A stretch of DNA of 64,000 bases, from positions 556,025-620,024 of the forward strand of contig JABDBA010000001.1 in the NCBI GenBank assembly GCA_013288885.1. Reading direction: 5' to 3'. The stretch's first letter is position 1, and each line of letters begins with the position of its first letter. The notes beneath the pieces were generated by a model. It ran no database searches, was not told the DNA's origin, and was given only the letters and a program-made list of their open reading frames with translations. Positions 3,574 to 60,251 of the stretch are shown here, piece by piece. A program made the position numbers and the translations under genes. Source of the stretch: Gammaproteobacteria bacterium. Lineage in GTDB: Bacteria > Pseudomonadota > Gammaproteobacteria > JABDBA01.

Positions 3574-4623
3574 ATGAAAATATTAAATCAGCTCACCACC
3601 CAGTTTTTGCATTGCTTTGCGCCAGAAACAGCACATCATTTAGCCATTAAAATGCTACGTCATTTACCAGCGCAAAATGTTCTTAGTGATATTGATAGCA
3701 ATATTTTTTCTCAAGAACTATTAGGCATGAAATTCACTCATCCACTTGGTTTGGCGGCGGGTTTTGATAAAAATGCCGATGTATTTGATAAATTGGGGCA
3801 GTTAGGATTTTCATTTGTAGAAGTGGGATCAGTAACGCCACGCCCACAACCAGGCAACCCTAAACCACGTTTATTTCGTTTGCCAGAACAACAAGCCATT
3901 ATCAATCGTTATGGATTTAATTCCGAAGGTTTGGATTATATGGCACAACATCTACAACAATATCCACGCACCTGTATTACTGGAATAAATTTAGGTAAAA
4001 ATAAAGAAACTACCAATTATGCCGATGATTTTCTGCGTAATGCAGAAGTGTTATGCACACTCGGTGATTATTTTGTTGTCAACGTTTCTTCACCTAATAC
4101 GCCCGGGTTACGTGATTTACAAACACCAGAAGCACTCGCGCCGATCATTGATGGAATCCAAGATATTATTCGCCGTAAAAAACCAGGCTTGCCGCTGTTT
4201 GTAAAAATATCGCCAGATATGACTGTTCCACAAGAAACAGCGTTGCTAGAATTTTTGATCACAAAAGCCGTGAATGGCATTATTATCAGCAATACTACAC
4301 TGAGCCGTGAAGGTGTAGAAGGCAGTAAAAACGCGGCAGAAGCCGGTGGTTTATCAGGGCCGCCATTAAAAGAACGCACCACAGCAATGCTACGTCGCGC
4401 TTATAAAATTACTCAAGGCAAGCTAGTTCTCATTGGTTGTGGTGGTATTAGCAGTGGTTTAGATGCTTATGAGAAACTACGAGCCGGTGCTGATCTCTTG
4501 CAAATTTATACGTCATTTGTTTATCACGGCCCACTGGTGATAAGAAAAATATTGGTCGAACTGGCCGAATTGCTAAAGCGGGATGGGGTTAAAAATGTGA
4601 GGGAGATTATCGGACACTTATAA
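3574..4623 (+). CDS. pyrD: Quinone-dependent dihydroorotate dehydrogenase
   Basis: GLAAGFDKN, PQPGNPKPRLFRL, INRYGFN, NVSSPNTPGLR, VKISPD, SNTT, GGLSG motifs. Confidence 0.97.
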   Translation: MKILNQLTTQFLHCFAPETAHHLAIKMLRHLPAQNVLSDIDSNIFSQELLGMKFTHPLGLAAGFDKNADVFDKLGQLGFSFVEVGSVTPRPQPGNPKPRLFRLPEQQAIINRYGFNSEGLDYMAQHLQQYPRTCITGINLGKNKETTNYADDFLRNAEVLCTLGDYFVVNVSSPNTPGLRDLQTPEALAPIIDGIQDIIRRKKPGLPLFVKISPDMTVPQETALLEFLITKAVNGIIISNTTLSREGVEGSKNAAEAGGLSGPPLKERTTAMLRRAYKITQGKLVLIGCGGISSGLDAYEKLRAGADLLQIYTSFVYHGPLVIRKILVELAELLKRDGVKNVREIIGHL

Positions 4624-4703
4624 GCCCCATATAAGTGTCCGATAATTCCTGTTGCAATGTAATTACCGGACACTTATAATAGGCCTATAAGTGTCCGGTA
4701 ATT
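4606..4703. repeat. Tandem pair of 17-7-17 bp inverted repeats overlapping the ATPase promoter
   Basis: ATTATCGGACACTTATA-AGCCCCA-TATAAGTGTCCGATAAT (4606-4646) and ATTACCGGACACTTATA-ATAGGCC-TATAAGTGTCCGGTAAT (4662-4702); both are perfect inverted repeats. Confidence 0.95.
4652..4680 (+). promoter_or_regulatory. Sigma70 promoter of ATPase-nuclease gene 1
   Basis: TTGCAA (4652-4657)-N17-TATAAT (4675-4680); ATG at 4716. Confidence 0.75.
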
Positions 4704-4715
4704 TGGGGGTGGGCT

Positions 4716-6170
4716 ATGTTGATAGGTAGAAACACTGAAATTCGCAGGTTGGAGAAGCTTTTCCGGTCATCGGAGGCTGAATTTGCTGTTTTGTACGGTA
4801 GGAGAAGAGTCGGGAAAACGTACTTGGTCAGGGAGTTTTTTGCGCAAAAGGACTGCCAATTTTTCCAAGTTACGGGGTCACAAAAGGGAACTCTAAGCAA
4901 GCAACTCACCCATTTCACCGACTCATTATCGGAAACCTTTACTCAGGGTGTGAGAATTACCACGCCGGACTCTTGGGAAGCAGCATTTAAAATGCTTACC
5001 CAATTTATTGATTCCATAAAATTTAAAAGCAAAATGGTTATTTTTTTGGATGAATTACCATGGCTGGCGACCAGGCGTTCAGGGTTGCTAGAAGCGTTAG
5101 ATTATTACTGGAATCAATTTTGGTCGACCAACCCTAAAATTATTTTAATTGTTTGTGGTTCAAGTGCTTCATGGCTGATAAAAAATATTATTTATAATCA
5201 AGGGGGTCTACATAATCGTTGTACCTGTGAGCTTAAATTGGATCCTTTCAATTTGGCAGAAACAAACGATTATCTCATTAGCAAAGGAATTAAGTTAAAC
5301 AAAAATCATGTTTTGGCACTTTATATGGCGCTTGGGGGTATTCCGTATTACTTAAAATATATAGAGCCTGGGTTAACTGCGGATGAAAACATACAAAATA
5401 TTCTTTTTGATAAGAAAGCACCACTTAAGGACGAATTTAAAAAACTTTTTAGTTCACTTTTTAAAAATGCTAATGCTTACATAGAGTTAGTGGAACTAAT
5501 TGCACGGAAGAAAGAGGGAATAAGTCGTACAGAGCTTGAATCATCATCAAAGTTGTCCCGTGGTGGAGGAAGGCTGACGCAACGATTAGGTCAGTTAACC
5601 AATACGAACTTTATTGAAACTTATGTACCTTGGGATAAAGAACGAGGCGAGTATTATAAAGTTATTGATGAATTTTGTTTATTTTATATTTATTGGTTAT
5701 CGACAAAACGAAATAAAAAAATTCTACACGATTACTGGTTAAAACGAACACAAAAACCAATATATCATGTATGGGCAGGATATGCATTTGAAGCAATTTG
5801 CCATAAACATATCGCTCAAATTATTCAAGCATTAAATATAAAAACTGCTGAAAATATTTCATCTTGGAAAATAATTGGCAAGAAAGAGAAAGAGAATGAG
5901 GATGGTGCGCAAATTGATTTGTTAATTGATCGAGATGATGATGCAATAACTATATGTGAGATCAAATATACCGATCAACCATTTGTGATTGATAAATCAT
6001 ATGCAGAGAACCTGAAGAAAAAAATTAATGTTTTTAAAAAAGAAACAAGAACTGACAAACAAGTATTTTTAGTCATAATTTCAGCTAATGGTCTTAAGAA
6101 AACGATGTATTCAGAAGAGTTGATTAATGGTTTGGTAACATTAGCTGATCTATTTAAACAGACTATTTGA
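4716..6170 (+). CDS. AAA+/archaeal-type ATPase with central winged helix and C-terminal PD-(D/E)XK nuclease-like (DUF234-like) domain, paralog 1
   Basis: IGRNTE, Walker A YGRRRVGKT, Walker B IFLDELPW, LIVCGS, GGIPYYL, wHTH-like GISRTELESSSKLSRGGGRLTQRL, GYAFEAIC, QIDLLIDR...ICEIKY. Confidence 0.9.
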   Translation: MLIGRNTEIRRLEKLFRSSEAEFAVLYGRRRVGKTYLVREFFAQKDCQFFQVTGSQKGTLSKQLTHFTDSLSETFTQGVRITTPDSWEAAFKMLTQFIDSIKFKSKMVIFLDELPWLATRRSGLLEALDYYWNQFWSTNPKIILIVCGSSASWLIKNIIYNQGGLHNRCTCELKLDPFNLAETNDYLISKGIKLNKNHVLALYMALGGIPYYLKYIEPGLTADENIQNILFDKKAPLKDEFKKLFSSLFKNANAYIELVELIARKKEGISRTELESSSKLSRGGGRLTQRLGQLTNTNFIETYVPWDKERGEYYKVIDEFCLFYIYWLSTKRNKKILHDYWLKRTQKPIYHVWAGYAFEAICHKHIAQIIQALNIKTAENISSWKIIGKKEKENEDGAQIDLLIDRDDDAITICEIKYTDQPFVIDKSYAENLKKKINVFKKETRTDKQVFLVIISANGLKKTMYSEELINGLVTLADLFKQTI

Positions 6171-6199: not shown

Positions 6200-7175
6200 A
6201 TGAACAACAGACCCGTTTACATTGATTGAATTCGGTATTGCTGGCGGTGTTGACACCAATAGCGATTTACCCATTACGCTCGCACGATCATTGGTGAAAA
6301 AACTGTTAGGAATGCATTCGGCAAAAACATTGGTCGATAAAACTAAGATTTTCTTTTCAATACGCCCTGCTGATTTTAAATTTAAAACACCTTCTGTTAA
6401 AGAACCGCGTACAGGGCTGTCGATGGGCGAACATTGTGAAAAGATGGTAAAAGAATGGAATATTTCACGACAAGCGCAAGATGAGCTTGCACTTAAGAGC
6501 CATCAAAATGGCAGCAACGCATATAGCGATGGTTTTTATAATGATTTAGTATTTGAATTTTGCGGGTTAAAAAAAGACGCCTTTTTACGCGCTGATACTA
6601 CATTAGAAAAACTCGCCAAACTTAAATCGGCGTTTGATTTTTCTAGCCAAGGTACCTTAACTGCTGGCAATAGCACACCATTGACTGATGGGTCGGCTGC
6701 AGTTTTATTGGCGAGTGAGGAAGAAATCAAACGCAAAAATTGGACGCCTTTAGCACGTTTTGTGGATGCGCAAGTTGCTGGAGTAGATTATGTACATGGC
6801 GATGGCTTACTCATGGCCCCTACAATAGCAGTGCCGAAATTACTTGATCGCAATGGACTTAAATTACAAGATTTTGATTTTTACGAAATCCATGAGGCTT
6901 TTGAAGGCCAGCTACTTTGTACACTAAGAGCTTGGGAATCTGCCAATTATTGCCGGAATGTATTAAAAAGAGAGAATGCGTTGGGTGCTATCGATAAAAC
7001 AAAATTAAATATCAAAGGTGGTAGTGTTGCCATTGGGCATCCCTTTGCAGCTACTGGAGCAAGAATTGTAGCTACACTAGCAAAGATATTGCATCAAAAC
7101 GGAAGAGGTCGCGGTCTCATTTCCATTTGCACCGCAGGTGGAATGGGTGTGACCGCGATATTAGAAGCAGCTTAA
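6200..7175 (+). pseudogene. Acetyl-CoA C-acyltransferase (thiolase, FadI/FadA2-like) with internal deletion and frameshift
   Basis: RBS then ATG 6200 gives the typical thiolase start MNNRPVYI, then stops at 6227-6229. The other frame resumes at IEFGIAGGVD and carries HEAF, GHPFAATG and SICTAGG, but the N-terminal catalytic-Cys region is absent. Confidence 0.8.
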
Positions 7176-28410: not shown

Positions 28411-28506
28411 AGTTGTGGCTGATTATAAGATGTTTATATTTAGCCACAACTCCTCTGTACATTCGAGTTATGGCTGGCTATAATAGAGGTATAATTAGCC
28501 ACAACC
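28411..28506. repeat. Tandem pair of 17-7-17 bp inverted repeats overlapping the promoter of ATPase paralog 2
   Basis: AGTTGTGGCTGATTATA-AGATGTT-TATATTTAGCCACAACT (28411-28451) and AGTTATGGCTGGCTATA-ATAGAGG-TATAATTAGCCACAACC (28466-28506); imperfect. Contains TGTACA (28456-28461)-N17-TATAAT (28479-28484). Confidence 0.88.
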
Positions 28507-28518
28507 CAGGTACTTGCC

Positions 28519-29994
28519 ATGAAGAAGATGATTGTTGGTCGAAAAATAGAACAGAATATCTTAGCAGCCACCTTAAAATCGAAAAAAGCTGAATTTGTCG
28601 CCGTCTATGGCCGACGCCGGGTCGGTAAAACCTTCCTTATTGAACAATTCTTCATACAAAAACCTTGTTTATATTTTTATTTAACAGGGTTACATAAAGG
28701 AACACTCAAAGAACACCTAACTGTTTTTGCCAAATCTATGAGCACCGCTTTTTTTGCCAATACTGGCATTCAATTGGAAAGCCCCTCAAATTGGTTAAAA
28801 GCATTTGAATTGCTGACCAATGCAATCAATAAATTTTCAAAGCAAAAGAAGGTAGTGTTGTTTTTTGATGAATTGCCTTGGCTGGCCTCGAAAAAATCCG
28901 GCTTTAAAAAAGCGTTGGATTTTTATTGGAATACAAGATGGTCAAAAGATAACAGGATAATTCTTATTGTATGTGGGTCCGCTGCTTCTTGGATAATTAA
29001 AAATATAATTAATGATAAAGGTGGTCTTCATAACCGTATTACTTTACAACTCCCTTTATATCCATTTTCTCTAAAAGAAAGCTATGATTATTTAAATTAT
29101 ATGGGCAATAAATTTAATCAAAAGCAAACATTAGAACTTTATATGGTGTTGGGAGGCATTCCACATTATCTGGAAAAAGTAAAGTCTGATCTTTCCGCAA
29201 TACAAAATATTTCTAAACTTTGTTTTACAAGAAATGGGCAATTATTTAAGGAATTTGATAAATTATTTTCATCACTATTTGATAATGCAGAAACTTATGT
29301 GGAGCTGATTAAAATTATCGCTACTAAAAGAAATGGAATGACACGGAGAGAGCTTGAAAGTAAAGCAAAATTGTCAGAAAGTGGTGGAACTTTAACTGAT
29401 CGCTTAGTGGCATTAGAGCAGGCAGGATTTATAAAAAGTTTTGTGCCGATTGGCTATACCGAAAAAGGTTTGTGCTATAAGTTAATTGATGAATATTGCC
29501 TGTTTTACCTTACCTGGATTAACCCTGTTAAACGGCAAATTGAAAATGAATCTGAGCCTGGTTATTGGGCATCAAAAAATAGTACACCTGCATGGCGTAG
29601 TTGGTCTGGGTATGCATTTGAATCAGTTTGTTTAAAACATGTGGCGCAGATTAAAAAGGCGCTTTTTATTCCCCCAGGAACATTATCAGGGTCATGGTTT
29701 TGCCAACCTGACGGAAAAAATAAATTGGAAGGAGCGCAGATTGATTTGTTGTTTGATAGAGATGATGGAGTGATTACATTATGTGAAATAAAGTATTGTC
29801 AATCACCATTTGAAATTGATAAAAAATATGCCGATGAACTAGTGAGAAAAGTGAAGGTTTTTAAAGAGCGTACTAAAGTCAACAAACAAATATTTTTATC
29901 GATGATTACGGCAAATGCTTTGAAAAAAAACAGGTATTCAGAAGAGCTTATTACTAGTAGAGCAACGCTTGATGATTTGTTTCAAGATGTTTGA
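28519..29994 (+). CDS. AAA+/archaeal-type ATPase-wHTH-PD-(D/E)XK protein, paralog 2
   Basis: VGRKIE, YGRRRVGKT, FFDELPWLA, LIVCGSAASW, GGLHNR, GGIPHYL, GYAFESVC, GAQIDLLFDRDD..ITLCEIKY; colinear with 4716..6170. Confidence 0.9.
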   Translation: MKKMIVGRKIEQNILAATLKSKKAEFVAVYGRRRVGKTFLIEQFFIQKPCLYFYLTGLHKGTLKEHLTVFAKSMSTAFFANTGIQLESPSNWLKAFELLTNAINKFSKQKKVVLFFDELPWLASKKSGFKKALDFYWNTRWSKDNRIILIVCGSAASWIIKNIINDKGGLHNRITLQLPLYPFSLKESYDYLNYMGNKFNQKQTLELYMVLGGIPHYLEKVKSDLSAIQNISKLCFTRNGQLFKEFDKLFSSLFDNAETYVELIKIIATKRNGMTRRELESKAKLSESGGTLTDRLVALEQAGFIKSFVPIGYTEKGLCYKLIDEYCLFYLTWINPVKRQIENESEPGYWASKNSTPAWRSWSGYAFESVCLKHVAQIKKALFIPPGTLSGSWFCQPDGKNKLEGAQIDLLFDRDDGVITLCEIKYCQSPFEIDKKYADELVRKVKVFKERTKVNKQIFLSMITANALKKNRYSEELITSRATLDDLFQDV

Positions 29995-44108: not shown

Positions 44109-47100
44109 TTAAATGTTAACACCATTAGGCAATAGATGGTGGGCAAGAGCTTGTTTTATTTTTTGAAAAATTTCCTGACGATTTTGATCATCGCGAATAA
44201 AGAGATGCCCTCCATTCAACTCATATGTTTGATATTCGGTTTTGGTATGTGTTACCCATCCTGCCATGTCATTATAAGAAACCCGGCTATCATGCTTTCC
44301 TGAAAATACAGTAATAGGTACTTCCAATGGAGTATCCTCTGTGAATTGATAATTTTTAACTAAGCGCATATCAGCTATTAAAATTGGTAACAATATTTTA
44401 AATAGTTCTTTATTCATAGCAGGGTCATAATTAATATCATTATGTTCATTAAAGATAGAAGCTAATTGGGTTAGCTGCTTGTCGTTCAACAAAGAGATCG
44501 TATCAGCATTATCTAATTCAAGTATGTTTAAATTATTGGTTTTTAATTGCTGCAATAAATTATTTAGACTTCGAGTCGGGGCCCGAGGGTCTGGAAAAGC
44601 CGATGCAAAAAATTGTATAGGTAATGGTAACTGACATTTCCGTAAATAGCGGATTAGCTCAAATGCAATTAATGCACCAAAACTGTGCCCAAAGAATGCA
44701 AAAGGCAAATTAAATTCATTTTTCAGATGCTCTGCTAAATTGTTAATTAAAAGTGCAATATCGGTGGTTATTTGTTCATTCATCCTATTTTCTCTGCCAG
44801 GTAGTTGTATAGGGCATATTTCTATTGTTTCTGGTAATGAGCGTTGCCAATTATTGTAAATGGAAGCACCAGCACCACCATAAGGAAAACAAAATAAACG
44901 TACTTTTGCATTGGGTTGAGTTTTTCTATATGCAATCCAGGAATTACCATTTTTTGTATTTTCTTTTGAATCGAAAGTATGGGTTGAGGGTTGAAGATTG
45001 AGTTGTTTTTGGGTGAGTATGAAATCAGTAATTTCAGCGATTGTTGGTCCTTGCAATAAGTTTTCTACAGAATAGCTTACCCCCAAATTCGTTTCTATTA
45101 TCTTCGTGAATGAGAGGGCCATGAGCGAGTCAATTCCAATCTCTCGTAAAGATTGATGGGTGTTGATATCATTGCTTGGCATAGAAAAAATAGCAGCGAT
45201 TTTTTCTACTAGATAATCAGTAATTTTTCCTTGGCGATGTTCAGGTGGTATAGAGTCTAAATTAAAATCATGCTGAGTATTGATATGCATAATTTGTTCG
45301 AGTGATATTTTATTGTTGAGTCTGGCCATATGCATATCTTTACAAACGGCAACAATGTGATTGTTATTGTCTATTAGGTACCAGTCGCCAATAATCCTTT
45401 CTCCATTTGGACTAATTTCTTTAAGTATAGTTAATAGAGATAAAGATTGGTCTGTGATGCCTGAATACAAAAATTTTCCTATCGTAGAGGCCACATAAGG
45501 TTGGTTAAGTTGTTCGGGTAGCAACATAAATAGAGGTTGTATACAGCCATCAATAATGCCGGGATGGACATTAAGTTTAAATTTGTCATTCACAACTGAA
45601 GCTGGGGTTTTAAATTCACACACCATTACTTTTTCTTCTAGCCAATATTGATGCGTCCAGCGGATACTTTCTCCAGCTGGCATTTCCATTGATGCAATGC
45701 GGTTATAAAGCTTTTCTGCATCATGCGATGAGATAGCTCGTTTTTTTATTTCATCAATGAGAATGGGGAGATCATATTTGATAATACTCAATGTTAATTT
45801 ACAGGTGGAGTTTTTTACCCAGTTGTTTTTATCAATCGGCTGACTGTAAAAAATGCAAGATAGTAAATCATTTCCTAGTTGTTCTAATATTAGATGGATC
45901 CTGATGGTGTTATTATTAGGAACTAATATTGGCGATAAAAAAGTAAGTTCTTCGACATTAAAGGTATGTTGTTGATAAAGATTGTTAACAACAAATGCTA
46001 ACATTTCAATAAAATAACCTGCATGTAATATATTGTAAGTATCTTTTAGTTCTGGTAATTGATTTATATTGAAAATAAATTCAAATTGTAGCAATGATAC
46101 GGGGGAAATAATTTGTTTTCCCTGTAAAGGGTAACTGCCGGTTTGTGCGCTTACTGTAGTATGACTACTATTTAAATTAGGCCAATAACTTTTAGGCTGC
46201 CATGGGTATGAAGGCATTTCAATGTATGGGTAGCTTCTTCTTTCTTCAAATTTAATCCAATTGATGGGGGAATTTTGTACATATAACTTGGCAATTATTT
46301 TTAAATCCAATGAGTTTAAGGGCATATGGGCTATATTTTTATATTCAATTAACAGATTTGGATCGTTACAATTTGTTTTTGTAAAAACGTTAACTGGAAT
46401 TTCAGATGGATTCTCAATTATTGCGCATAATAAATTGTATAGCTCAGCTATGCTGGAAGAAATTATTGCAACTTTATGAGAAAAATGGGCGCGTCTTAAG
46501 TGGGTATTAAAACATAGCTGAGCTAAATTTACGGTTAGATTATTTTTTAAATAATTACGCCAGAGTAGAATTAATTGGTTAAGCGCGACAGGATCTTTAG
46601 CCGATAAAGTAAACAATTCATTATTTGTAGATTCTATAGGCGCAGTTGATAAAGAAATAGACGCGAGCTTTTCTTGTTCGGTTAAATCGCGCACAATAAC
46701 ATGTGCATTGGTTCCACCAAAACCGAAACTACTAATTCCTGCTATACGTTGATCGTTATGTTTCGGCCAACCGATTGTATTTTTGGGGATCTTTAAGTTG
46801 TATTTATTAAATGGAATATGCGGATTTTGATTAATAAAATTAAGGTGGGGTGGTATTTGTGCATTTTTTAAAGCTAATGCTATTTTAATAATGCTGGACA
46901 TACCGGCCGCCGGTTCTAAATGGCCGAGATTAGTTTTTACAGAACCTATCCAACAAGGATTTTCTGGCTTTCGATTTTTGCTTATTATATTGCCCAGAGC
47001 TTGTATTTCTATCGGGTCACCTAAAAAAGTTCCCGTTCCATGACATTCCACATAAGATAACATCAAAGGGTCAATGCCCGCAGCGTTGTATACATCTCGC

Positions 47101-48041
47101 AGTAATTTTTCTTGCTGCAGGCCATTGGGTGCTGTTAATCCATTGGTTCGACCATCTTGATTAATACCACTGCCCGCGATGACGGCATAAATTCTATCTT
47201 TGTCTTCTATGGCTTTTGCTAATGGCTTTAATACAATTACACCAACCCCCTCACCTTGCACATAGCCGTTTGCTTGTGCATCAAATGTTTTGCATTGTCC
47301 ATCTTGCGATAGCATTTTTGCTTTTGATAGCGTTAAATTAATGGAGGGCAGTAAATTTAAACTAATACCACCCACAAGCGATAGATCACAACTATTATTC
47401 TGAATGTTTAAGCAAGCCAAATGTAGTGCTACCAATGATGAAGAGCATGCAGTATCAACAACAAGACTTGGGCCACGAAGATCAAATTGGTATGAGATGC
47501 GATTTGCAGCAATACTTGTGGCATTACCAGTGGGAAGATATAAAGCATCCATTTCTGTTTCAAGTTTTTGTAGATGACCCAATTGGCTTGGATATAAACT
47601 AGCAAATACACCTGTATTAGAGCCTGCCAGAGCCTCCGTCGTTAACCCTGCATCTTCAATTGCCTCATAAGTAACTTCTAACAATAAACGTTGTTGGGGA
47701 TCCATACGTACTGCTTCACGTGGAGTAATGCCAAAAAAATAAGCATCAAAGGCGCTGATGTTTGATAAAAAACCGCCCCAATAAGGGTGGTCTTTTTCGC
47801 GTTTAGTGATTTCATCGGTACCTTCTAATAATTGCCAGCGTTCCTCAGGTATATGCGTAATAACGTTTTTGCCATGAGTCAGTAATTGCCAGTAATCGTC
47901 TTTATTTGCCACTTGGGGAAACCGACAACTTACACCAATAATGGCAATAGGTTGATAAGAGTTAGATTTTTGGGTTTTTAATAAATGCTTGAGTTTATTG
48001 ATAGTATATAATGCTTTATGTAATGTCGTGGCTTCAGTCAT
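44109..48041 (-). CDS. AT-less PKS terminal module: KS-DH-like-ACP-TE
   Basis: DTACSSS/ECHGTGT/GHLE (KS), double-hot-dog region with HPGIIDGCIQ, IGIDSL (ACP), FCFPYGG, GHSFG and GGHLF (TE). Likely start MTEAT at 48041. Confidence 0.93.
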   Translation of the reverse strand: MTEATTLHKALYTINKLKHLLKTQKSNSYQPIAIIGVSCRFPQVANKDDYWQLLTHGKNVITHIPEERWQLLEGTDEITKREKDHPYWGGFLSNISAFDAYFFGITPREAVRMDPQQRLLLEVTYEAIEDAGLTTEALAGSNTGVFASLYPSQLGHLQKLETEMDALYLPTGNATSIAANRISYQFDLRGPSLVVDTACSSSLVALHLACLNIQNNSCDLSLVGGISLNLLPSINLTLSKAKMLSQDGQCKTFDAQANGYVQGEGVGVIVLKPLAKAIEDKDRIYAVIAGSGINQDGRTNGLTAPNGLQQEKLLRDVYNAAGIDPLMLSYVECHGTGTFLGDPIEIQALGNIISKNRKPENPCWIGSVKTNLGHLEPAAGMSSIIKIALALKNAQIPPHLNFINQNPHIPFNKYNLKIPKNTIGWPKHNDQRIAGISSFGFGGTNAHVIVRDLTEQEKLASISLSTAPIESTNNELFTLSAKDPVALNQLILLWRNYLKNNLTVNLAQLCFNTHLRRAHFSHKVAIISSSIAELYNLLCAIIENPSEIPVNVFTKTNCNDPNLLIEYKNIAHMPLNSLDLKIIAKLYVQNSPINWIKFEERRSYPYIEMPSYPWQPKSYWPNLNSSHTTVSAQTGSYPLQGKQIISPVSLLQFEFIFNINQLPELKDTYNILHAGYFIEMLAFVVNNLYQQHTFNVEELTFLSPILVPNNNTIRIHLILEQLGNDLLSCIFYSQPIDKNNWVKNSTCKLTLSIIKYDLPILIDEIKKRAISSHDAEKLYNRIASMEMPAGESIRWTHQYWLEEKVMVCEFKTPASVVNDKFKLNVHPGIIDGCIQPLFMLLPEQLNQPYVASTIGKFLYSGITDQSLSLLTILKEISPNGERIIGDWYLIDNNNHIVAVCKDMHMARLNNKISLEQIMHINTQHDFNLDSIPPEHRQGKITDYLVEKIAAIFSMPSNDINTHQSLREIGIDSLMALSFTKIIETNLGVSYSVENLLQGPTIAEITDFILTQKQLNLQPSTHTFDSKENTKNGNSWIAYRKTQPNAKVRLFCFPYGGAGASIYNNWQRSLPETIEICPIQLPGRENRMNEQITTDIALLINNLAEHLKNEFNLPFAFFGHSFGALIAFELIRYLRKCQLPLPIQFFASAFPDPRAPTRSLNNLLQQLKTNNLNILELDNADTISLLNDKQLTQLASIFNEHNDINYDPAMNKELFKILLPILIADMRLVKNYQFTEDTPLEVPITVFSGKHDSRVSYNDMAGWVTHTKTEYQTYELNGGHLFIRDDQNRQEIFQKIKQALAHHLLPNGVNI

Positions 48042-48060
48042 ATTAAATGCCCTATTATTG

Positions 48061-51000
48061 TCATCGACTAAGCTCATCAACCTGCATGAGCTCTTCTTCT
48101 AACAATTTATTAATTTGCTCATCATTAAGATGAGTCATTTTTTCTAAGAATTCATCCTCACTTAACGTTGACAATATATCCCCATTATTAGCTGCAGATT
48201 TTTGAGTTAGTGCTGGTGTTGTAGGTTGACATGATTGAATGATAAACCCAACCAGTTGATTGATGGTTGTATAACGAAAGAGATCCATGGGTGAAACTAT
48301 ATCCGGGTAAAAATCAGATAATCTACTCACAAAATTGATGCCGTTGATTGAATCAAGGCCATAATCTTGATAAGTACTATTGGTATCCATTTCAGTAATT
48401 TCTAAACCTAATATTTCTGCTAGAGCAGAGGCGACATTAGTGGTTATTTGTTCAGGATCTAAATCAATATTTAATTGCGCTGCTTGATTATTGATAGTAT
48501 GTTGAGCAGCAAAGTTGGCAAAGAGAGGTAATTTTCTGGTATCGGAATTTACTTTGAAGAATTTTTGCCAAAGCATTTTAAATACTGTTACAGTGGTACT
48601 ATGTTTATTATTCAATAAAAACTCTAGTATTTCCATTCCTTTTGGTATCGCAATTGTTGACATACCGACTGCGTCTAAGAAAGCACTGTGATTATATCTA
48701 AAACTCATTCCTTTATCAGCCCATGCAGTCCAGTTAATGCTTGTCGCAGGTAGTCCAAGTTGACGTCTGTAAGCAGCAAATCCATTTAAAAACTCGTTGG
48801 CCATGGCATAGGCGCTCAAACCACTCATGCCAAAATAAGGCATTGCAGCAATTGAAGAAAATAACACGAAGCAATCAAGGTCAGCTTTTTTAAATATCTC
48901 ATGTAATACTAAAGTTCCTTGGACTTTGACAGATAGTACTTTTTGCAGCAATTCTTTAGTCATTTTTGCGATAGGTATACTGTCGGTTGTAATGCCAGCT
49001 AGATGAAAGAGACCTTTAATGGATTTTCCCCATGATTGTTCGGTTTGTTCAATAATAGATTGCATTTTGATTTTATCGCAAACATCAACCGTGGCATATT
49101 TGACTTGAGCACCAAGCTTCTCAAGTGAAATCATATTGGTTAGTTTTTCTTGCAACGATGTCTCATGTGTTTTTGACCATTCGGATCGCTCAGGTAATGG
49201 TGTTGACCCTGTTAAAAGTAAAAACTTAGTGCCTTGTTTTACTAGCCATTGCGCTACTTCTGCCCCAAGTGCACCCAAACCGCCAGTTATTAATGCTGTT
49301 TCAGGAGCACGCCAACTTGTAGTTTTTATGTGGGTTGTCTCTTCCAGATGAGATGCAAGGCGGATCACATAGCGTGATTTTTCTCTAAAAGCCAAATAAT
49401 TTTCACCAGGTTCCAAATTTAGTAATTCTTGTGTGATAGCGCTAGCTTCTTCGCGTAGTCTTTTTTTAGAGTCTAAGTCAAGTAATAGTATTTTATAATC
49501 TGCGTGCTCGACAGAGAAAATGCGCATTAATGACCATAAATGGTGCTGCCATATTTGTATAGGGTCATTTTCAACAACGGGCTGGCTACTTCGTGTGACC
49601 AAACAGAACTTCAGCTTATTTTGCCAGTTTTGTTTTATAAGTCCCTGCAACAAAGAGAATAACTGAAGACTATTTTCAGCTTGTTGATTGTTAGAATATA
49701 AATCAGTTTGTTCTATCATTTGCTGCCGATCTTCTGCGAAATTAGCAAGATAAATTATTCCCTTGAGGTCTTTATTATAAATAGTGAAAATAGATGCAAA
49801 TAATTGGTGGTAATCACTGGAGCTGCTGGGGTTAATATAAAATACATTTTCCTTTAATTGTTCGAATTTTTCGCCAGCAAAACAATAGATACAAGAAGAT
49901 TTTCCTGGGGTATCTTGTAGTAAGCCCCCTAATTCTTTATCACTGAAAATAAGCCAACGTTCTGTTTCGATATTTGAGATACTTGTGTTATCGGTAGACT
50001 TTTGTTCCCAGCGAGTACAATAAAGCCAATCGTTTATATCGTTTGGTATTTCATAGTTTGTATCTTGCTTTTTTTCTTCATGCTGAATTACTGGAGGTGT
50101 TGGTGATTTATCGATAGCTTGCTGTTGTTGGTTTTGTGCGGTTGATGACGGAACCCAACAACGTCTTTTTGCAAACGGGTAAGTTGTTAAAAAAACTCGT
50201 TTTGGTTTATATGGAGTATAAAGTAGTTCCCAGTTTACTTTAGCTCCGTTTGTCCATAATGGTGTTATTTTTTCATATTCTGCTTGTTCTATAAATTCAG
50301 CTAAATTATGTTGAGGTTGTAGGGCTGCTTTATTGTTCTGCACGGGGGAACTTACCCATACTTGATTTATTGCATTGGCAGGATTAGTTAAATATGAATT
50401 AAGTTTATCTATTAAATCATTATATGTGGTTGCAAGAATAGCAAGTCTAGTAGGCATATTTTCGCGACCGACCTGTGAGGTATAACATATATTGCTCAAC
50501 CAGTTTTTTAGATCATCTTCAGTATTTTGTTTTTTACCTTCGCTAAGTAAGAAAGCATAAATTTGCTGCACGTAATCTTGCAGGCGATCGGCATTTTGCG
50601 CAGAGATTAACAATATAAATGGGATCTGTTTAGATTGAGCATCATTATTATTTCTGACGTCTGCAATATATTCTTCAATAATAATATGAATATTAGTACC
50701 GCCAGCACCAAAAGAGCTTACACCTGCTCTTCGTGGAAAGCCTGGTATAGGTGACCAATCACTTAATTCCCGCTGTACAAAGAATGGAGATTGTTTAAAG
50801 TCAATAAAGGGATTTAACTCTTCGGCATGAATAGAAGCCACTAATTTTTTATGCTGCATTTGTAATAATACTTTAGTCAGTTGCGAAATTCCTGCCGCTG
50901 ATTCTAAATGTCCAATGTTTGACTTCACAGAGCCGATCGCACAGAACTGTTTATCTTTAGTATAGTGCTCAAATGCTTCTTGTAGGCCTCTTATTTCTAT

Positions 51001-54000
51001 GGGGTCACCTAACGCCGTACCAGTACCGTGGGCTTCGATGTAAGATATACTGCGTGGGTCAATATTCGCTTTTTCTAATGCGGCTTTGATCACGGCTGCT
51101 TGCGCATTAGGATTGGGGATAGTGTAGCCGCTGGTTTTACCACCGTGGTTCATCGTGCTGCTTTTAATGACACCATAAATGCGATCATTATCTTTAATGG
51201 CTAATGATAGGGGTTTAAGCAGAACGGTACCTACTCCTTCTGAGGGCACATATCCTTGACCACCAGCAGCAAAGCTTGAACAGCGGCCTTGGTCAGACAT
51301 AAAACTTAAACTTCCAAGCATATGATATTTACAAGGGTGTAATGATAAATTAACTCCGCCAGCGATGGCCATAATACATTCGCCACGAAGAATGCTTTCA
51401 CAGGCTAAATGAATGGCAGCCAATGATGAAGAACAAGCGGTATCAACAGGATAACTGGGCCCATTTAAGTTAAAAAAATAGGAAACACGATTGGCAATAG
51501 AGAACATTTGAATATCTAATGGTATACGGTTGCCTTTTGCCCATTCGTCTGCAATAAATAATGGATAAAAATTATAAGTGACACCTGCAAATACGCCTAC
51601 TTTGCCGTTGGTTAAACGTTGTAAGCTTTCACGTGTATAACCTGCATCTTCAAATGTAGTCCAGACAGATTGTAAAAACAACCTTTCTTGTGGGTCGATT
51701 GTGGCTGCATCTGCGGGAGAAATTTTAAAAAGTAGTGGGTCAAACTTATCAATGTCTGGAATAAATCCACCATACTTAAAGTATTTTGTTTCTTCACCTA
51801 ATAAAACAGGATAATCTTTATAGTTCCAGCGCTCGATTGGAACTTCAGATATACAATCTCGTCCTTGCACTAAATTAGTCCATAGTTCATCAATATCTTT
51901 GGCTAAGGGATAAGTGCCGCTGAGGCCTATTATAGCAATGTCATTCGATTCATTAGTTTTTGCTGATTTATCAGGTTGACTTGGAGTAAACGTTTCTTGT
52001 GAAACCGAACAATTAGCATTGAGTTCCTCGCGCGGTTCGCCCAAATCATTATTTTGATTTCCAACTAATTTTAGTAAAGTCGGTTTATGCGATTGTTGAA
52101 AAAATAAGGCCAGATCCGCTATCTTGCTTCGTTCATAGAGTAGTGTTTTAGATAAACTGCCAAAATCTTTTTCTAAGCGTTCGGTAATCTCTAAACCTAT
52201 TAGGGAGTCTATACCATATTCTTCATAGGTTGCATCAGCAGAAATTTGATGTGACTGCAGCTGGAGTTTTTCGGCAAATATTTGTTGTAAATAATTTATA
52301 GTGAGATTTGATAAATCTATAGGTTGTGTTGCATTTTGACTGATAACTATTGGATTAGTTGTGGTTATTTCCGATTTTGCTGTTTGTATGTCAGCATCAA
52401 ACCAATAACGTTGTTTAATAAAAGGATAGGATGGCAGGCCCGCTAAGCGTAATTTTCTTTCTCCCGCATGTAAAATACCCCAGTCTATTTGAAAATTATT
52501 AATATAAAGATCGGCGAGTAATAATAACTTATCGCGATAGATCTCGGGAGGAAGGGCTTCATAGTTCTTTATGGCATCTATGGTCGATTTATATATTTCA
52601 TTAAATAAAGGCCCATTACAATTGTTTGTTGATGTTGTATTTCGTAGGCAATTATTAGGTAACTGGTTTTCCATCAGCAGTTCCAGCGTCTGTAATAAAT
52701 CTTCCAGTGAGGTTACTACTATGGCGCAGCGTGTATTGAAATGACTGCGGCCTGCATTAAGTGTAAAACTTAGATCCGCAAGATTTGTGGTTACTAAATT
52801 CATTTTTAACCAAACATGCAGATCTTTAAACTTCTGTATTAAGCTTGCCTCTTGTTTGGCTGATAGAGTAATTAAATAATAAGGTTTTAGTAGGGCAGAC
52901 GTTGATGAATTTTTAATCTGTGGATATTCTTCGATGACCATGTGTGCATTAGTTCCTCCAAAACCAAAAGAGCTCACTCCTGCGCGCCGTGGTATTTCGG
53001 TTCCAGCTCCATCTTTTAATCGGGGCCATCCCCGTGTTTTTTCAACAATGTAAAAGGGGCTATTAGATAAATCTATATACGGATTTAATTCTTTAAGATG
53101 TAAATTCCCAGGTATTGTTTCATGTTGCATGGCCAGTAGGACTTTAATAACTCCCGCAATCCCAGAAGCAGGTTCTAAGTGACCAATATTTGTTTTGACT
53201 GTACCAAGACCACAAAAAGCTTTTTGCTTTGAGGGCGTGCCTTGTTGCGATACTAATATATTAAACGCTTGTTTTATCCCTTCAATTTCAATAGGGTCAC
53301 CTAATTCAGTGCCAGTGCCGTGCGTTTCAATATAAGAGACAGTATTTATATCAATATTAGTTTGTTTATATGCTTTAACGAGTAGTTCGCTTTGGGCTGT
53401 TGTATTAGGAGCTGTCAATGATTGTGCTTTGCCCCCATGATTTACTGCAGACCCTTTGATAACTCCATAAATATGGTCGCCATCATTCAGAGCCATGTTT
53501 AAAGGTTTTAGCATAATAGTGGCGACACCTTCTCCTTTGACATAGCCGTTAGCAGTTTTATCGAAAGTTTTGCAACGACCATCAGGAGAAAGAGCGCCTA
53601 ATTGGCTGGTTACTACAAACGTTTGTGGATCTAGTATGAGGCTGACTCCACCTGCGATAGCAATATTGCACTCACCATTATGTAGTGCATTGACTGCACG
53701 GTGGATTGCTACTAAGGCACTCGAACAGGCAGTATCAATAGATTCACTGGGGCCATTCAAATTAAGAAAGTATGAAACTCGATTGGTGAGTAAAGCATGT
53801 GAATTACCGGTCGAGATATGCCCATGAAATATTTTATTCTGTTTTTGTATTAGAGTTTGATATTCTTGAAACTCAATTCCTGCAAAGATGCCTACTTCTT
53901 GTGCCGACAGTGAAAACGGGTCATAGCCAGCATCTTCAATGGTTTTCCAAACAATTTCTAAAAATAAGCGATGCTGTGGATCCATCAAATTTGCTTCACG

Positions 54001-57000
54001 GGCAGATATATTAAAAAAAGCTGCATCAAAAGTGTCAGCGCCATCTATAAAGCCACCCCATTTAGAATTGGTTTTAGTAGGGTTTTGTTTGGCATCGCCA
54101 TAATATTCACGCCAATCCCAGCGTTCGATAGGAATTTCAGTCACTAAATCATGGCTCGCTAGTAGATGCGCCCAAAATTCTGTCAGGTCTTTAGATTGAG
54201 GAAAATAGCCTTGCATACCGATAATTGCAATGGGCTCATGGTTAAAAGTCGATTTTATTGGTTTAATATAATTTATCTTTTGAGTTTCATACCGAAAAGA
54301 TGAAAAAACAATTGGAAAGGCTTCTAATAAATATTTACTTAGCGCAGTTATGTTAGTGTGTGTAAAAAAAACGATGGGGGCTAGTTCAATGCCATAGCGA
54401 TTTGCTAATTGCGCAGCCAATTCTTTTTGGACGATTGATTCTAAGCCTTGTTCACTAAATGAAGCTGTTAGATTGATAGCGTAAGTTTCTTTCTTTAATA
54501 ATTGCGCTACAAGCTGGACTAAATCTTGTTTAATTATTTCCAATTTTTCTTGTCTAAAATTGGGTTCTGTTAATTCGACCTTGATTGAAGTTGAATTTAC
54601 AGGTTGATTTAGATTAGGTACCCAATAATAATCTTTAGCAAACGGATATCCGGGCAATGAAACCCGTCGTTTAGGCAGTTTCAATGATTCCCATTCAATA
54701 TTACTGCCTGTTACGTATAAACGCGCTAAGGAGAATTCTTTTGATGACGATAAGCGATTGTTTGTTTGAGCTAAACCATCATTAACAATATAATTTTCAG
54801 GAAACTGATTTTGTTGGATGCGTATTAAAGTTTCTTGCAATTCAGTAATCGATTTTACAATCAGAGCACAGCGTTTATCGAAGTGATTTCGACCTAGATT
54901 CAATGTATAGCTGATTGCCGCCAGATCTGGTGGATCAGTTTTTTTCATTAACCATTCGCTTAAATCATTGATGCGTTGTTTTAGTGCCCCATCTGTTTTT
55001 GCAGATAAAGTAATTAAGTAAGAGGTGGATTCATTTGAGTTTATCGGGTTCTCATTCAAATGATCTCTATATTCTTCAACGATAATATGTGCATTTGTAC
55101 CGCCAAATCCGAACGAGCTTATGCCAGCACGTCGTGGGATTTCAGCACCAGCTGCTGTTTTTAATCGATCCCATGGTTGGGTTTTGTTAACAAGATAAAA
55201 GGGTGTTTTATCTAGATCGATATAAGGGTTTAATTCAGTGAAATTTAAATTGCCAGGTATTTGCCCCTGTTGCATAGACAATACTGTTTTAACTAAACCA
55301 GCAATACCTGCTGCTGCTTCCAAATGACCAATATTCGTTTTGATAGCGCCTAAGCCACAATAATTATTATTCAATGGTTTTGATGTCTGTTCTGCTGATA
55401 AAGTATGAAATGCATTTTTTAGGCCATTTATTTCTATGGGATCACCGATTGAAGTACCCGTACCATGAGTTTCAATATAGCTAATAGTGTCGATCGGAAC
55501 TTGCGCACGTTGACATGCGCTGATGATAACATCTGCTTGTGCATTTGGGTTGGGTACGGTAATTGAACTTACTTGGCCACCATGATTGACTGCAGTACCT
55601 TTGATGACTGCGTAAATATGATCTCCATCGGCTTGTGCTTTATTTAATTGCTTTAAGAGGATTGCCACAATTCCTTCGCCGCGCACATAACCATTCGCTG
55701 CTTTATCGAAAGTTTTGCATTTGCCATCTTCGCTTAATATTCCGGCTTTGCTGGCGTGTAGATGAGGGGTAAATATGGTATTAACTGCACCTGCAAGTGC
55801 AATATCACAATCACCATTATTTATTGCTTGTACCGCTTGATGAATTGCAACAAAAGAGCTGGAACACGCTGTATCAACGGTTGTACTTGGTCCATGTAAA
55901 TCAAGTGTGTAAGAGACGCGATTGGCTAATATTGTGGATGTTATGCCAGTCATCATATAAACATCTGTAATCCCTTTTTTTTGTAAAAGTTCGATATAAT
56001 CATAAGTAAACATACCTACAAAAACACCCGTTTTAAAGTTAGCAAGTGTTTTGGTGCTATAGCCAGCATCTTCTATGGTTTTATATGTTGTTTGTAAAAA
56101 AAGACGTTGCTGCGGGTCGATAAGTTCAGCTTCTCGTGGTGAAATATTAAAAAAGTTTGCATCAAACTCGCCAACTCCATCGATGAAGCCGCCCCAGATA
56201 TCTTTTGTTTTATCATTTTCTAAGAGGGGATCTCCGTAGCAAGCTTTCCAGTCCCAACGATCTTGGGGTATTTCAGTAATTACTTCTTTACCAGATATCA
56301 GATTATTCCAGAAAGTATCTAAATCAGCAGCACCGGGAAAGAGGCCATTCATACCAATGATGGCGATATCATTATCATTGGTTGGAATTGCAATAAACTC
56401 ATTGGTTTTTGCAGGTTCAATTCGCACTACATTCGTGAATTTTTGCGATATTAGATAATTATAAAGCCCATCTAAAGTCGTATATTCAAATAAATTAGCA
56501 GGAGTGAGGTTTACTTGATATTCTCTGTTGATTAACACCATTAGATTGGTTATTGTGATCGAATCAAAACCATATTCATTAACCGAATCACTTAAGTCAA
56601 TTTCATTCGCATCAACATTTAATATGGAGGCAACAAGGTTAATAAAATCTTTTTCAAATTGCTGTAAATCTATTTCCGTAGTTACTTTGATTTCATTATC
56701 TGGGTGTGGATGAGGTTCTTCGATAGTTTGATTGGTTTTAAAATGTTTTCTTACAATTTCTAGTTTTTCTTCGATGAATAATGTTTTGCACAGCGATCGT
56801 TGTAGCTTTCCGCTGGTAGTCTTGGGGATAGCACCGGGTTTGATTAGTATTACTCCATGCAGGTCAATGCCATGATGTTCAGAAATAGCTGCACGTATAG
56901 ATTTAATGATTTCATTTTGCGATGAGTTAGATATATCGTCTTTAATTTCTTGTATGAAAACTAACTCTTCATTTTTATTATTTGATAGGGTGAAACAAGC

Positions 57001-58615: not shown

Positions 58616-60251
58616 ATGATTGATGCTGTAGTGGATAAAACTAAGCACAGCTTTAACATTACTGATAATCAACAAATAACAATTGGCGCGAATAGCAGAT
58701 TAACGCTAGTTAACTCTAAATGTCTTGCCAACAATAATATACCTGTCAAATTAAGTAAAGATTCATATGCGGTGATGAATCAATCGCATCAATTCTTAAA
58801 ATCGTATATTGATCGGCGCGTACCTGTTTACGGCATTAACACGCATTTTGGTGATCAAGTTAATTTGTTAGAGCCACATCTTAAATCCGACGAACAATCT
58901 TATTATCAGGCTATCCAAGCGCGGCAAGAAAATCTTATTCGCTCACACGCGTGCGGATTAGGAAAAATAATACCACCTGAAATAATTAAAGTAACAATGA
59001 TGTTGCGTGCACATTGTTTATCACAGGGATATTCAGGAGTTGCACCCGACCATATAGAAAAGATTTTAAATTTCTTAAATGCAGGTATAGTGCCAATTGT
59101 GCGTTGTTATGGTTCGATAGGTGCAAGTGGAGATTTAATTCCACTGGCAATGATTGCAGCCGCTGTAGTGGGTGAAGATGTAGAAGTATTATATCAAGAT
59201 AAAATAATGCGTGCTCCACAAGCCATTGCGATGGCAGGATTAAAACCATTTAAACTGCAAATGCGCGATGGTTTATCGATGATTAATGGCACTTCTTTTA
59301 TGACGGCAATAGCGAGTGTTGCACTCTATGATCTGAAACGCTTATTTCTGCAGATGATCAGCGCTATTGCAATGACGCTAGAATCTATGATGATTATTAG
59401 TAGTGGCTATCACCCATTGGTTCATCAAGTGAAACATCATGTGGGCCAAATGCGAGTCAATGAGATTATTTTGAGTTTTTGGGAGAACAGCCAATTATTA
59501 TTTAACTTAGATGAATTGCGTATAGCTAATGCCGATCAACATTCGGCAACCGGGAATAGTAATTCTGAATTAAGACCTGTGCAAGATTATTATTCGTTAC
59601 GTGCAATATCGCAAGGGTTTGGGCCCTTTTATGAAAATCTAGATCGTGCAACGGTTTGGGTAGAGAACGAGATGAATTCTGTCAATGATAATCCTATTAT
59701 CGATGCGGTTGGTAAACAAATTCATCAAGGTGCAAATTTTATGGGTTATTATATCACTGATGCTTGTGATATTTTAAAAAATGAATATTGCGCAGGCATC
59801 CACTTGGTTACATGCGTTGCTCGCAAACATGGTGCATCCGCGCAAAAATAATAATTTACCGACAAATCTTATTCAGGACCCTGGCAAATATAATGGCTTC
59901 CGTCCGATTCAATTACTTGCAGCTGCGTTAGCAGTTCAAAATCGAAAATTAGCACAATCACAACAAGCATTTATGCTGCCGACTGAGGGCGATAATCAAG
60001 ATGTAAATAGTTTGGGCACACATGCGGCATTAGATTTTCAAGAAGCAGTAGCGAATTTGGAAAGATTAACGGCCATTTTGATGTTGGCATCAACCCAAGC
60101 ACTAGAGTTTCGTGGCATCGAGAAAGCAAGCCCTAAAGCACAAGCTATTTATCAAACAGTGAGGGGATCTTCACCCACGCTAGCAGCTTGTCGTCCGATG
60201 ACCGAAGAAATGAACGCTGTTGTAGGTTTGTTGCAAGCAGAAAAAATTTGA
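58616..60251 (+). pseudogene. MIO-dependent aromatic amino acid ammonia-lyase/aminomutase, split by a 1-nt frameshift
   Basis: VYGINTHFG, GASGDL (MIO), MINGTS, QDYYSLR, NSVNDNP, GANF in ORF 58616..59851; NQDVNSLG and QALEFR in +1-frame ORF 59781..60251. Removing one A from A6 at 59776-59781 restores ...DILKMNIAQ. May be a sequencing error. Confidence 0.85.

Follow-up and report, generated by a model that had tools for sequence, protein, structure and literature searches.

What do the palindromes in front of an ATPase-nuclease gene do, and which protein reads them? The question is raised by positions 28,411 to 29,994 of a 64,000-nt stretch of the genome of a Gammaproteobacteria bacterium (GCA_013288885.1, contig JABDBA010000001.1, positions 556,025 to 620,024), hereafter the window, where four 17-nt arms precede an open reading frame (ORF) for an AAA+ ATPase joined to a winged helix and a nuclease-like domain. 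A preliminary description, made from the letters alone, had recognized here the second of two cassettes, 24 kb apart, with the same repeat geometry and different operator sequences. Judging from sequence comparison, we consider it probable that the four arms are private autoregulatory operators of the downstream gene's own product, read by its winged helix, and each paralog's DNA-binding domain most likely reads its own private sites to control itself.

The array, the predicted promoter and the encoded protein

The region upstream of the gene at 28519 (p01 in what follows) contains these elements:

28411-28427: arm 1, left half-site of the distal palindrome, AGTTGTGGCTGATTATA, TATA end inward (direct reading and repeat search)
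28428-28434: 7-nt spacer of the distal palindrome
28435-28451: arm 2, right half-site of the distal palindrome, TATATTTAGCCACAACT (direct reading and repeat search)
28456-28461, + strand: -35-like hexamer TGTACA between both palindromes (consensus match only)
28466-28482: arm 3, left half-site of the proximal palindrome, the most degenerate of the four arms
28479-28484, + strand: -10-like hexamer TATAAT, composed of the inner TATA of arm 3 and the first two spacer bases
28483-28489: 7-nt spacer of the proximal palindrome
28490-28506: arm 4, right half-site of the proximal palindrome, TATAATTAGCCACAAC (direct reading and repeat search)

The four arms at 28411-28506 make up two palindromes, whose 40-nt units are 78% identical and lie 55 bp apart from start to start. 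Arms, 7-bp spacers and a 55-bp period had been described before, and all are borne out by direct reading and a repeat search. TGTACA-17-TATAAT is the best sigma-70-like site of the upstream region (10 of 12 consensus positions); the -10 hexamer formed from arm 3 and its spacer, and an ATG (28519) 12 nt past arm 4, were both found as described. A second in-frame ATG at 28528 gives a better alignment with the N-termini of the paralogs than 28519 does. Among sequencing runs searched for the locus, one DNA run, labelled soil metagenome and possibly the source, contained it, and no RNA run did.

The other cassette, copy 1 (p07), is laid out as follows:

4606-4622 and 4630-4646: arms of the distal palindrome
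4661-4678 and 4686-4703: arms of the proximal palindrome
4652-4657 and 4675-4680: promoter-like pair TTGCAA and TATAAT, 17 nt apart, in a place equivalent to the promoter of the 28519 gene
4716-6170, + strand: ORF of 484 aa, 49% identical to the 28519 ORF

Its array (4606-4703) has perfect arms, 7-nt spacers and a 56-bp period, with arm sequences other than those at 28411-28506. Spacers beginning AG.. and ATAG.. are present in both copies' spacer pairs, and the recognition-helix segments quoted in the preliminary description are present in the two proteins. The shared geometry and TATA ends reported there also stand; the statement that the outer arms are unrelated fails in part, because both copies fit one family-wide half-site. 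In each, TATA at positions 1-4 is followed by a central G/T-C step and a distal part rich in A, the differences being confined to some positions. The dihydroorotate dehydrogenase gene (pyrD, 3574-4623) has its stop codon (4621-4623) inside arm 1 of copy 1.

The gene downstream of the four arms encodes the following parts:

28519-29994 (alternative start 28528), + strand: ORF of 491 aa, AAA+ ATPase, winged helix and PD-(D/E)xK nuclease-like domain, PADLOC PDC-S27
28609-28632, + strand: Walker A, G31-T38 (GRRRVGKT)
28867-28872, + strand: Walker B, D117-E118
29287-29484, + strand: winged helix, residues 257-322 (AlphaFold2 model; weak MarR/PadR sequence matches)
29374-29421, + strand: loop and recognition helix, residues 286-301 (SESGGTLTDRLVALEQ), with S288 and T291 on either side of an invariant GG
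29524-29991, + strand: PD-(D/E)xK nuclease-like C-terminal domain, residues 336-491

The protein matches the PADLOC hidden Markov model (HMM) PDLC04984 (PDC-S27) over its full length (E 4.1e-175; residues 4-488 on profile positions 3-473 of 474), and the copy 1 protein matches it with E 9e-172. Pfam ATPase_2 (PF01637) scores 59.6 bits, above the gathering cut-off of 33.2. An NCBIfam profile search returned no family, and Pfam DUF234 (PF03008), searched on the isolated C-terminal part, stayed below its cut-off (17.3 vs 22.5 bits, E 0.0063); the accessible text of PMC3424549 counts DUF234 among the PD-(D/E)xK families. Across 87 sequences, G31-K37 and E118 are invariant and D117 nearly so, and the nuclease residues E368, D409, E423 and K425 are invariant both in these 87 and in a set of 60. 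The parts of the sources that could be consulted describe PDC-S27 as a candidate phage-defence system with ATPase and PD-(D/E)xK architecture (PMC12988326; bioRxiv 10.1101/2024.01.29.577857), common as PDC-S27/COG1672 in bacteria and archaea, with 3503 and 4562 systems counted (PMC12988326). The cellular role of the enzyme is stated here as candidate phage defence.

An AlphaFold2 model of the full-length protein, built on the 87-sequence alignment, has a mean predicted local distance difference test score (pLDDT) of 95.6 and a predicted template modelling score (pTM) of 0.92. It places an AAA+ core, a helical lid, the winged helix and an alpha/beta C-terminal domain in this order, the winged helix comprising helices 257-268, 276-282 and 290-301 and strands 305-308 and 319-322. 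For ATPase, lid and winged helix, the first fold neighbours are the archaeal ATPases 2QEN and 2FNA, followed by STAND proteins (CED-4, Apaf-1, NLR) and ORC/Cdc6, among them Orc1 and Cdc6/Orc1 on origin DNA, which they hold through the equivalent winged-helix domain. 2QEN (PAB2304) and 2FNA (SSO1545) are the best matches in both sequence and fold over ATPase and winged helix; unlike the 28519 protein, they have no nuclease domain (350 and 352 residues). Modelled alone (pLDDT 94.1), the C-terminal domain has top Foldseek matches that are all PD-(D/E)xK proteins (AF1548 (1y88), McrC, MspJI, EndoMS, Can2/Card1), at modest template modelling (TM) scores of 0.40-0.48 and with just three at E <= 0.001. 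By its modelled structure the domain is of restriction-endonuclease-like fold, a putative nuclease.

Private arrays and a family half-site

A search of the source genome (2.59 Mb, 49 contigs, 84% complete) for more paralogs, suggested in the preliminary description as a check, found 14 full-length copies rather than two, together with one 84-aa fragment. Nine are ~50% identical to the query and five 31-34%. The possibility that other paralogs lack arrays, which would have told against dedicated operators, was examined as well: inverted repeats lie directly upstream of all 14, each with its own sequence. A period of 54-56 bp is found in all 13 paralogs having at least two palindromes (p04 has a single one), and the last arm ends 11-23 nt ahead of the start codon. 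A uniform palindrome score of at least 12 is reached by 13 of the 14 (p11 fails) and by 46 of 78 homologues from other genomes. Among controls it is reached by none of 390 dinucleotide shuffles and by 23 of 400 regions upstream of the source genome's other ORFs. The earlier argument that recurrence speaks against chance hairpins is upheld by this comparison with shuffled sequence. The best promoter-like sites lie inside the array in p01, p07, p09, p06, p10 and p14.

The arrays are also private in the genome at large. Isolated arm copies had been suggested as possible targets; in a genome scan, 16-nt half-sites at 0-1 mismatches occur only upstream of their own gene, p05 (contig C3) and p07 excepted, and the remaining matches are isolated 2-mismatch sites in about the number expected by chance. 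With a position weight matrix (PWM) for the family, eight inverted pairs of hits were found in the 2.59 Mb, seven of them upstream of family genes. The sole pair elsewhere, C8:81578-81636, is upstream of an unrelated 443-aa ORF. Further traces of the family were noted in the genome. The 84-aa fragment (C32:3459-3710) is 33% identical to residues 174-257, has no upstream palindromes and is probably a gene remnant. One orphan palindrome of the family type, GACTCGCCGCTTATA-N7-TATAAGTGGCGAGTC, lies just downstream of p04 (contig C6; L004 ~1445-1485); its half-site is unlike those of all 14 paralogs, and it has no family gene next to it, a HicB-like ORF following ~350 nt on. A second, TGTTTGGCCATTTATA-N7-TATAAGTGGCCAAACA (C2:116436-116474), is located between dnaJ and an ORF of 95 aa, likewise away from any family gene. 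The two orphans may be relics of lost copies.

The half-site itself was derived from a wider set of 170 genes with upstream DNA, taken from the source genome, from metagenomes and from GTDB genomes of Gammaproteobacteria, Coxiellaceae, Chlamydiae, Bdellovibrionaceae, Bacteroidota, Firmicutes and others. Expectation-maximization alignment of palindrome arms gave 5'-TATAwTnnGCCAAAwCT-3', or in a shorter form TATAwnnnGCCAAAwC. A palindromic pair fitting the PWM (at least 16 bits) was found at 100 of the 170 genes, whereas none of 170 shuffled sequences and one of 340 other natural upstream regions contained one. Over 99 fitting loci the half-sites alternate in orientation at fixed spacing: neighbouring TATA ends are separated by 4-7 nt in 76 of 92 cases, and neighbouring distal ends by 15-17 nt in 115 of 124. 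The arrays consist of two half-sites at 36 loci, three at 23, four at 31 and five to nine at 9, and the last half-site ends a median of 22 nt before the start codon. The geometry of the window copies is thus a rule of the family. The apparent single TATA-outward palindrome of Bacteroidota members corresponds to arms 2 and 3 of the 28519 gene. A palindrome of this family kind is also present in the cultured Emticicia oligotrophica DSM 17448, at the plasmid gene EMTOL_RS20590 (annotated 'ATP-binding protein'), where ATTATATTTGGCGGAAT-N18-ATTCCGCCAAGTATAAT ends 50 nt before the ATG and the recognition helix reads A-D-GG-S.

Helix and half-site are both kept in relatives from other organisms at about 60-69% protein identity, as in the cases of p04 and p07. 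TAGCCCAsTAA is retained by p04 and its nearest relatives (L112 and L117, ~60% identical). L251, from another family-level genome (G089) and 69% identical in protein to p07, shares with copy 1 both the helix GGGRLTQRL and the CCGGACACTTATA-N7 palindromes.

Residue-base covariation and probable autoregulation

If each protein reads its own array, residues that contact DNA should vary together with the bases of the half-site. Mutual information (MI) was calculated over 95 non-redundant genes, between about 480 protein columns and 18 half-site positions. Three pairs stand out (p01 numbering):

T291, just after the invariant GG, with base 8: MI 0.92, z 11.6; T with A, R with G, G with C or T
S288, just before the GG, with base 11: MI 0.78, z 15.1; S or T with C, N with T, D with G
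K316, in the wing, with base 13: MI 0.44, z 8.2; K with A, R with T

The first two are the two largest MI values, and other columns are lower than the three listed. In the AlphaFold2 model S288 caps the N-terminus of helix 290-301, T291 belongs to its first turn, and K316 is part of the wing. The N-terminus of the recognition helix and the wing are the usual DNA-contacting parts of a winged helix. The strongest covarying columns thus fall inside the segment that had been put forward as the putative recognition region, at the N-terminus of the recognition helix.

Kinship was controlled for with independent contrasts on a tree built without the columns of the winged helix-turn-helix (wHTH). Same-direction and opposite contrasts numbered 7.5 vs 0.2 in 12 pairs for T with A (residue 291, base 8; median p 0.016), 6.2 vs 0.2 in 9 pairs for the wing pairing of R with T (base 13; p 0.03), and 4.5-5.2 vs 0-0.3 in 8 pairs for the three tests on S288 (p 0.06-0.125). 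When the data were split in halves, S288 with base 11 ranked 1 of 4140 and 9 of 4956, and T291 with base 8 ranked 6 of 4140 and 37 of 4956. A held-out set of 65 later genes came from viral contigs, one named plasmid and five further genomes of the class. In the 13 of them that have a PWM-fitting palindrome, the rule for base 8 (T with A, R with G) predicted 8 of 8 arms correctly.

The proposed mechanism would be as follows. The winged helix would read a half-site of 16-18 bp, some of whose bases are common to the whole family, with the variable bases 8 and 11-13 read by S288 and T291 at the helix start and K316 in the wing. A period of ~5 helical turns would place several subunits on one face of the DNA in alternating orientation. 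The promoter would be built into the array, with the -35 hexamer between the palindromes and the -10 hexamer in arm 3 and its spacer. From a predicted transcription start near 28491 the proximal palindrome would be centred near -5 and the distal one near -60, so that occupancy should shut the gene off, the proximal palindrome blocking RNA polymerase when bound. The ATP-dependent nuclease would thereby hold its own amount low. The distal site may contribute cooperativity, or may act positively at low dose as in R-M (restriction-modification) controller proteins. As paralogs are expected to read different bases, each should mostly set its own level and regulate only itself, and p05 and p07 should cross-regulate. 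The arrays, their lattice, their confinement to the upstream DNA of their own gene, the family-wide half-site and the covariation are observed; binding, repression rather than activation, cooperativity and the benefit of insulation between paralogs, namely that it 'lets paralogs coexist', are inferred.

Several observations weigh against this account or limit its reach. The PWM was trained on the very loci that were counted, and 70 of the 170 family genes have no palindrome fitting it. The best consensus promoter match of 8 of the 14 paralogs is weak or lies off the proximal palindrome, and a distal site near -60 would also suit activation. Insulation is incomplete, the half-sites of p05 differing from those of p07 at one position and from those of p06 at two. 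Relatedness inflates MI, most of the independent-pair tests are individually above p 0.05, and in the metagenome half other columns rank above the helix columns. Among the held-out genes, 52 of 65 have no PWM-fitting palindrome (13 fit), many of them being distant relatives from viral contigs. The rule for base 11 (S or T with C, N with T, D with G) predicted 8 of 20 held-out arms correctly and that for base 13 predicted 9 of 16, neither exceeding the success expected from base frequencies. Several S-GG proteins of the bacterial class of the source genome, p09 included, carry G at base 11; together with the failures of the rule, this suggests that the readout of base 11 is not fixed by one residue. 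The half-sites of the five distant paralogs of the source genome fit the common pattern poorly, although the 54-bp period is kept. A simple three-position recognition code held only partly, one of the three single-residue rules generalizing to held-out genes. Thus, of the earlier proposal of orthogonal operator-protein pairs, the part concerning cognate pairs of differing specificity is supported by private arrays and covariation, and the part concerning full orthogonality is not, since p05 and p07 nearly share a half-site.

Autogenous control of this kind has parallels. The controller (C) proteins of R-M systems and their C-boxes (C.PvuII, C.Esp1396I) share the tandem palindromic operators overlapping their own promoter, and different C-protein groups have different box sequences. 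In the accessible parts of the sources, autogenous feedback from the tandem palindromic operators of C proteins is described as controlling the nuclease gene (PMC2175313, PMC2647307, PMC3351150). C proteins are small, separate Xre-type helix-turn-helix (HTH) proteins co-transcribed with the nuclease, whereas here the winged helix (257-322) is within the 491-aa ATPase-nuclease, and the interval between array and gene at 28519 holds no separate regulator ORF. The half-sites here are also longer than C-boxes, and arrays reach nine half-sites on a ~54-bp lattice. The 28519 protein is not a member of the C-protein family and would, on the proposed mechanism, work like one. Winged-helix or HTH repressors of the BrxR/CapW type and autoregulating antitoxins bind inverted repeats at defence or toxin promoters; these are separate regulator proteins, whereas here the effector itself would regulate. 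Archaeal Orc1/Cdc6 has the same AAA+, lid and winged-helix module by Foldseek (2v1u, 2qby, 1fnn, 1w5t; E ~1e-8), with the winged helix on DNA, and its repeated, inverted binding sites lie beside the protein's own gene. Unlike Orc1/Cdc6, the present family has 14 copies per bacterial genome, a fused nuclease and sites at promoters, with no sign of an origin. A replication-origin role for 14 dispersed copies is unlikely, and the likeness to Orc1/Cdc6 is one of resemblance only.

Distribution and alternative readings

The family is carried by 2 of 30 same-class relatives, and PDLC04984 has matches in 31 of 301 genomes of the class, the source genome included, where per-genome copy numbers are lower bounds (five candidates scored in each). 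The same model also has a match in Bacteroides thetaiotaomicron. Five of those class genomes have 5-17 copies each, again with distinct palindromes. Relatives were found on 53 IMG/VR contigs and on 21 plasmid records, annotated merely as ATP-binding or hypothetical protein. In the tree the 14 paralogs are not monophyletic: 10 label changes are needed, at least 6 of them forced by supported branches. Recent duplication within the genome was rejected as the source of the 14 copies, the paralogs being interleaved with sequences of other organisms. The closest relatives of the window proteins are in metagenome-assembled genomes labelled Coxiellaceae, Chlamydiae, Rickettsiales, Bdellovibrionaceae and Simkaniaceae, and include one on a plasmid of the amoeba symbiont Candidatus Paracaedimonas acanthamoebae. 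The hosts of these relatives hint at exchange among host-associated bacteria.

Could the arrays serve the enzyme rather than its promoter? There is an outside chance that the winged helix is the sensor in a germline repertoire of sequence-specific, ATP-driven nucleases, 14-17 per small genome, and that the array parks an inactive oligomer. The ~54-bp lattice would hold the enzyme, and related foreign sites, or loss of parking in the course of an infection, would release or assemble the AAA+ oligomer and fire the nuclease. If this were true, the residue-base code would be the evolvable recognition code of an innate immune receptor family of bacteria and archaea.

A further reading, in our estimate an improbable one, is that the winged helix aims or triggers McrBC-like ATP-dependent restriction of foreign DNA, so that the paralogs form a specificity repertoire and the promoter sites are secondary and self-limiting. 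McrBC and other AAA+/PD-(D/E)xK defence nucleases have the same combination of AAA+ motor, DNA-recognition domain and nuclease; the C-terminal domain resembles McrC (its second-best fold match; 6hz4_N, E 3.7e-4, TM 0.46), MspJI and other defence nucleases, and the catalytic residues of ATPase and nuclease are invariant. PADLOC lists the family as a phage-defence candidate, 53 relatives are on IMG/VR viral contigs, and the presence of 5-17 copies in a small genome, their helices diversified, resembles a repertoire. Unlike McrBC, the protein is one polypeptide, its ATPase is ORC/STAND-like and not McrB-like by Foldseek ranking, and recognition is apparently of long specific sequences and not of modified bases. 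A half-site with ~10 or more specified bases is almost never expected by chance in a phage genome, and the p07-type palindrome, the one pattern searched, had no exact match in IMG/VR. Sites of conserved geometry exactly on the gene's own promoter are explained by autoregulation and not by targeting. HMM match and domain order are shared with PDC-S27. The PADLOC candidates were proposed from nearness to defence systems; the two window copies (the only loci examined) lie among housekeeping genes and not in defence islands, their neighbours being pyrD, a thiolase remnant, a BioA-like aminotransferase, GGDEF, OsmC and aconitase. The accessible parts of the PDC-S27 sources report no defence phenotype (PMC12988326; bioRxiv 10.1101/2024.01.29.577857).

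Much less credible still is that the palindromes are the ends or recombination sites of a mobile cassette whose AAA+ and nuclease parts are akin to the transposition proteins TnsC and TnsA. A weak profile match to TnsC (E 1e-5), the at least six origins forced by the tree and the two orphan palindromes without a gene would suit such a cassette, as would apparent scars at copy 1 (the 5'-truncated thiolase right after it and the pyrD stop inside arm 1) and the direct repeats around p03 (23 nt, exact) and p14 (~46 nt, imperfect). On the other hand, the arrays are one-sided, with no cognate half-site downstream of any paralog; 12 of the 14 cassettes lack any flanking direct repeat above 11 nt; the cassette contains neither transposase nor integrase; and the arrays overlie the promoter at a constant distance ahead of the start codon (median 22 nt). 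Transposon ends were therefore rejected as a general explanation, on account of the one-sided sites and the 12 cassettes without flanking repeats.

The traces around single cassettes are described here in their own right. The thiolase ORF after copy 1 (6204-7175, + strand) opens at 6204, 34 nt past the copy 1 stop, and lacks the N-terminal third, the Pfam Thiolase_N match beginning no earlier than profile position 145; this ORF resembles a scar left when the copy 1 cassette arrived. The p03 cassette (gene and array, ~1.8 kb) has on either side an exact 23-nt direct repeat with no further copy in the genome (L003 1347-1388 and 3168-3209; C13:10433 and 12254) and lies inside a local array of 66-nt and ~111-nt repeats; it is the only one of the 14 cassettes with such an exact flanking repeat. 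At p14 (contig C9) an imperfect ~46-nt direct repeat, seen by eye ~220 nt upstream and 60 nt downstream, consists of the 3' end of the upstream gene and a decayed copy of it past the cassette, with an exact core of 11 nt.

Least probable of all is that the palindromes have nothing to do with the adjacent protein and are terminators, repetitive extragenic palindromic (REP)-like repeats, RNA structures or another regulator's sites. In favour of this, palindromes often occur upstream of genes (23 of 400 control regions reach a score of 12 or more), and the distal one of copy 1 abuts the end of pyrD. Against it, every array is private to a single gene, the palindrome centres consist of AT-rich TATA with no T-run and no terminator-like site at 28411-28506, Rfam gave no match anywhere in the window, transcription from the predicted start would include arm 4 alone, and covariation with the helix of the adjacent protein is unexpected for a foreign regulator. 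Privacy, composition and position ruled out the terminator, REP-element and RNA-motif readings.

Some features of the region bear no relation to these cassettes. At 44109-58443 (- strand) two giant ORFs (3460 and 1323 aa) encode a modular polyketide synthase with an AMP-binding loading domain, four KS domains, ACPs, KR, DH and a thioesterase; because no acyltransferase domain is listed, it may be of the trans-AT type. An aromatic amino-acid lyase gene (58616-59851) comes after these ORFs. An unrelated 40-bp palindrome, CGTCTGGAATAAGGA-N10-TCCTTATTCCAGACG, occurs at least seven times in the genome (C1:520470-533971 and C6:36973), six copies being packed into 14 kb a short way upstream of the window.

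Both the gene family and autogenous operators as a principle were known before. The reachable literature on PDC-S27, DUF234 and ATPase_2, supplements aside, describes no winged-helix DNA-binding role, upstream palindromes or autoregulation; nor did we find in it the built-in winged-helix reader, the family half-site and lattice, the private arrays of multiple paralogs or the partly transferable residue-base rule. With probable autoregulation by the winged helix as the favoured reading, the PDC-S27/COG1672 family gains a candidate DNA ligand for each protein, a conserved putative binding lattice and candidate specificity residues. The question is thereby raised whether sequence recognition is part of the enzyme's function or of its regulation only. 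If binding is confirmed, the family would amount to an extensive natural collection of winged-helix/operator pairs that differ from one another and follow at least one residue-base rule that can be transferred, useful for studying how paralogs avoid cross-talk and as a source of orthogonal parts.

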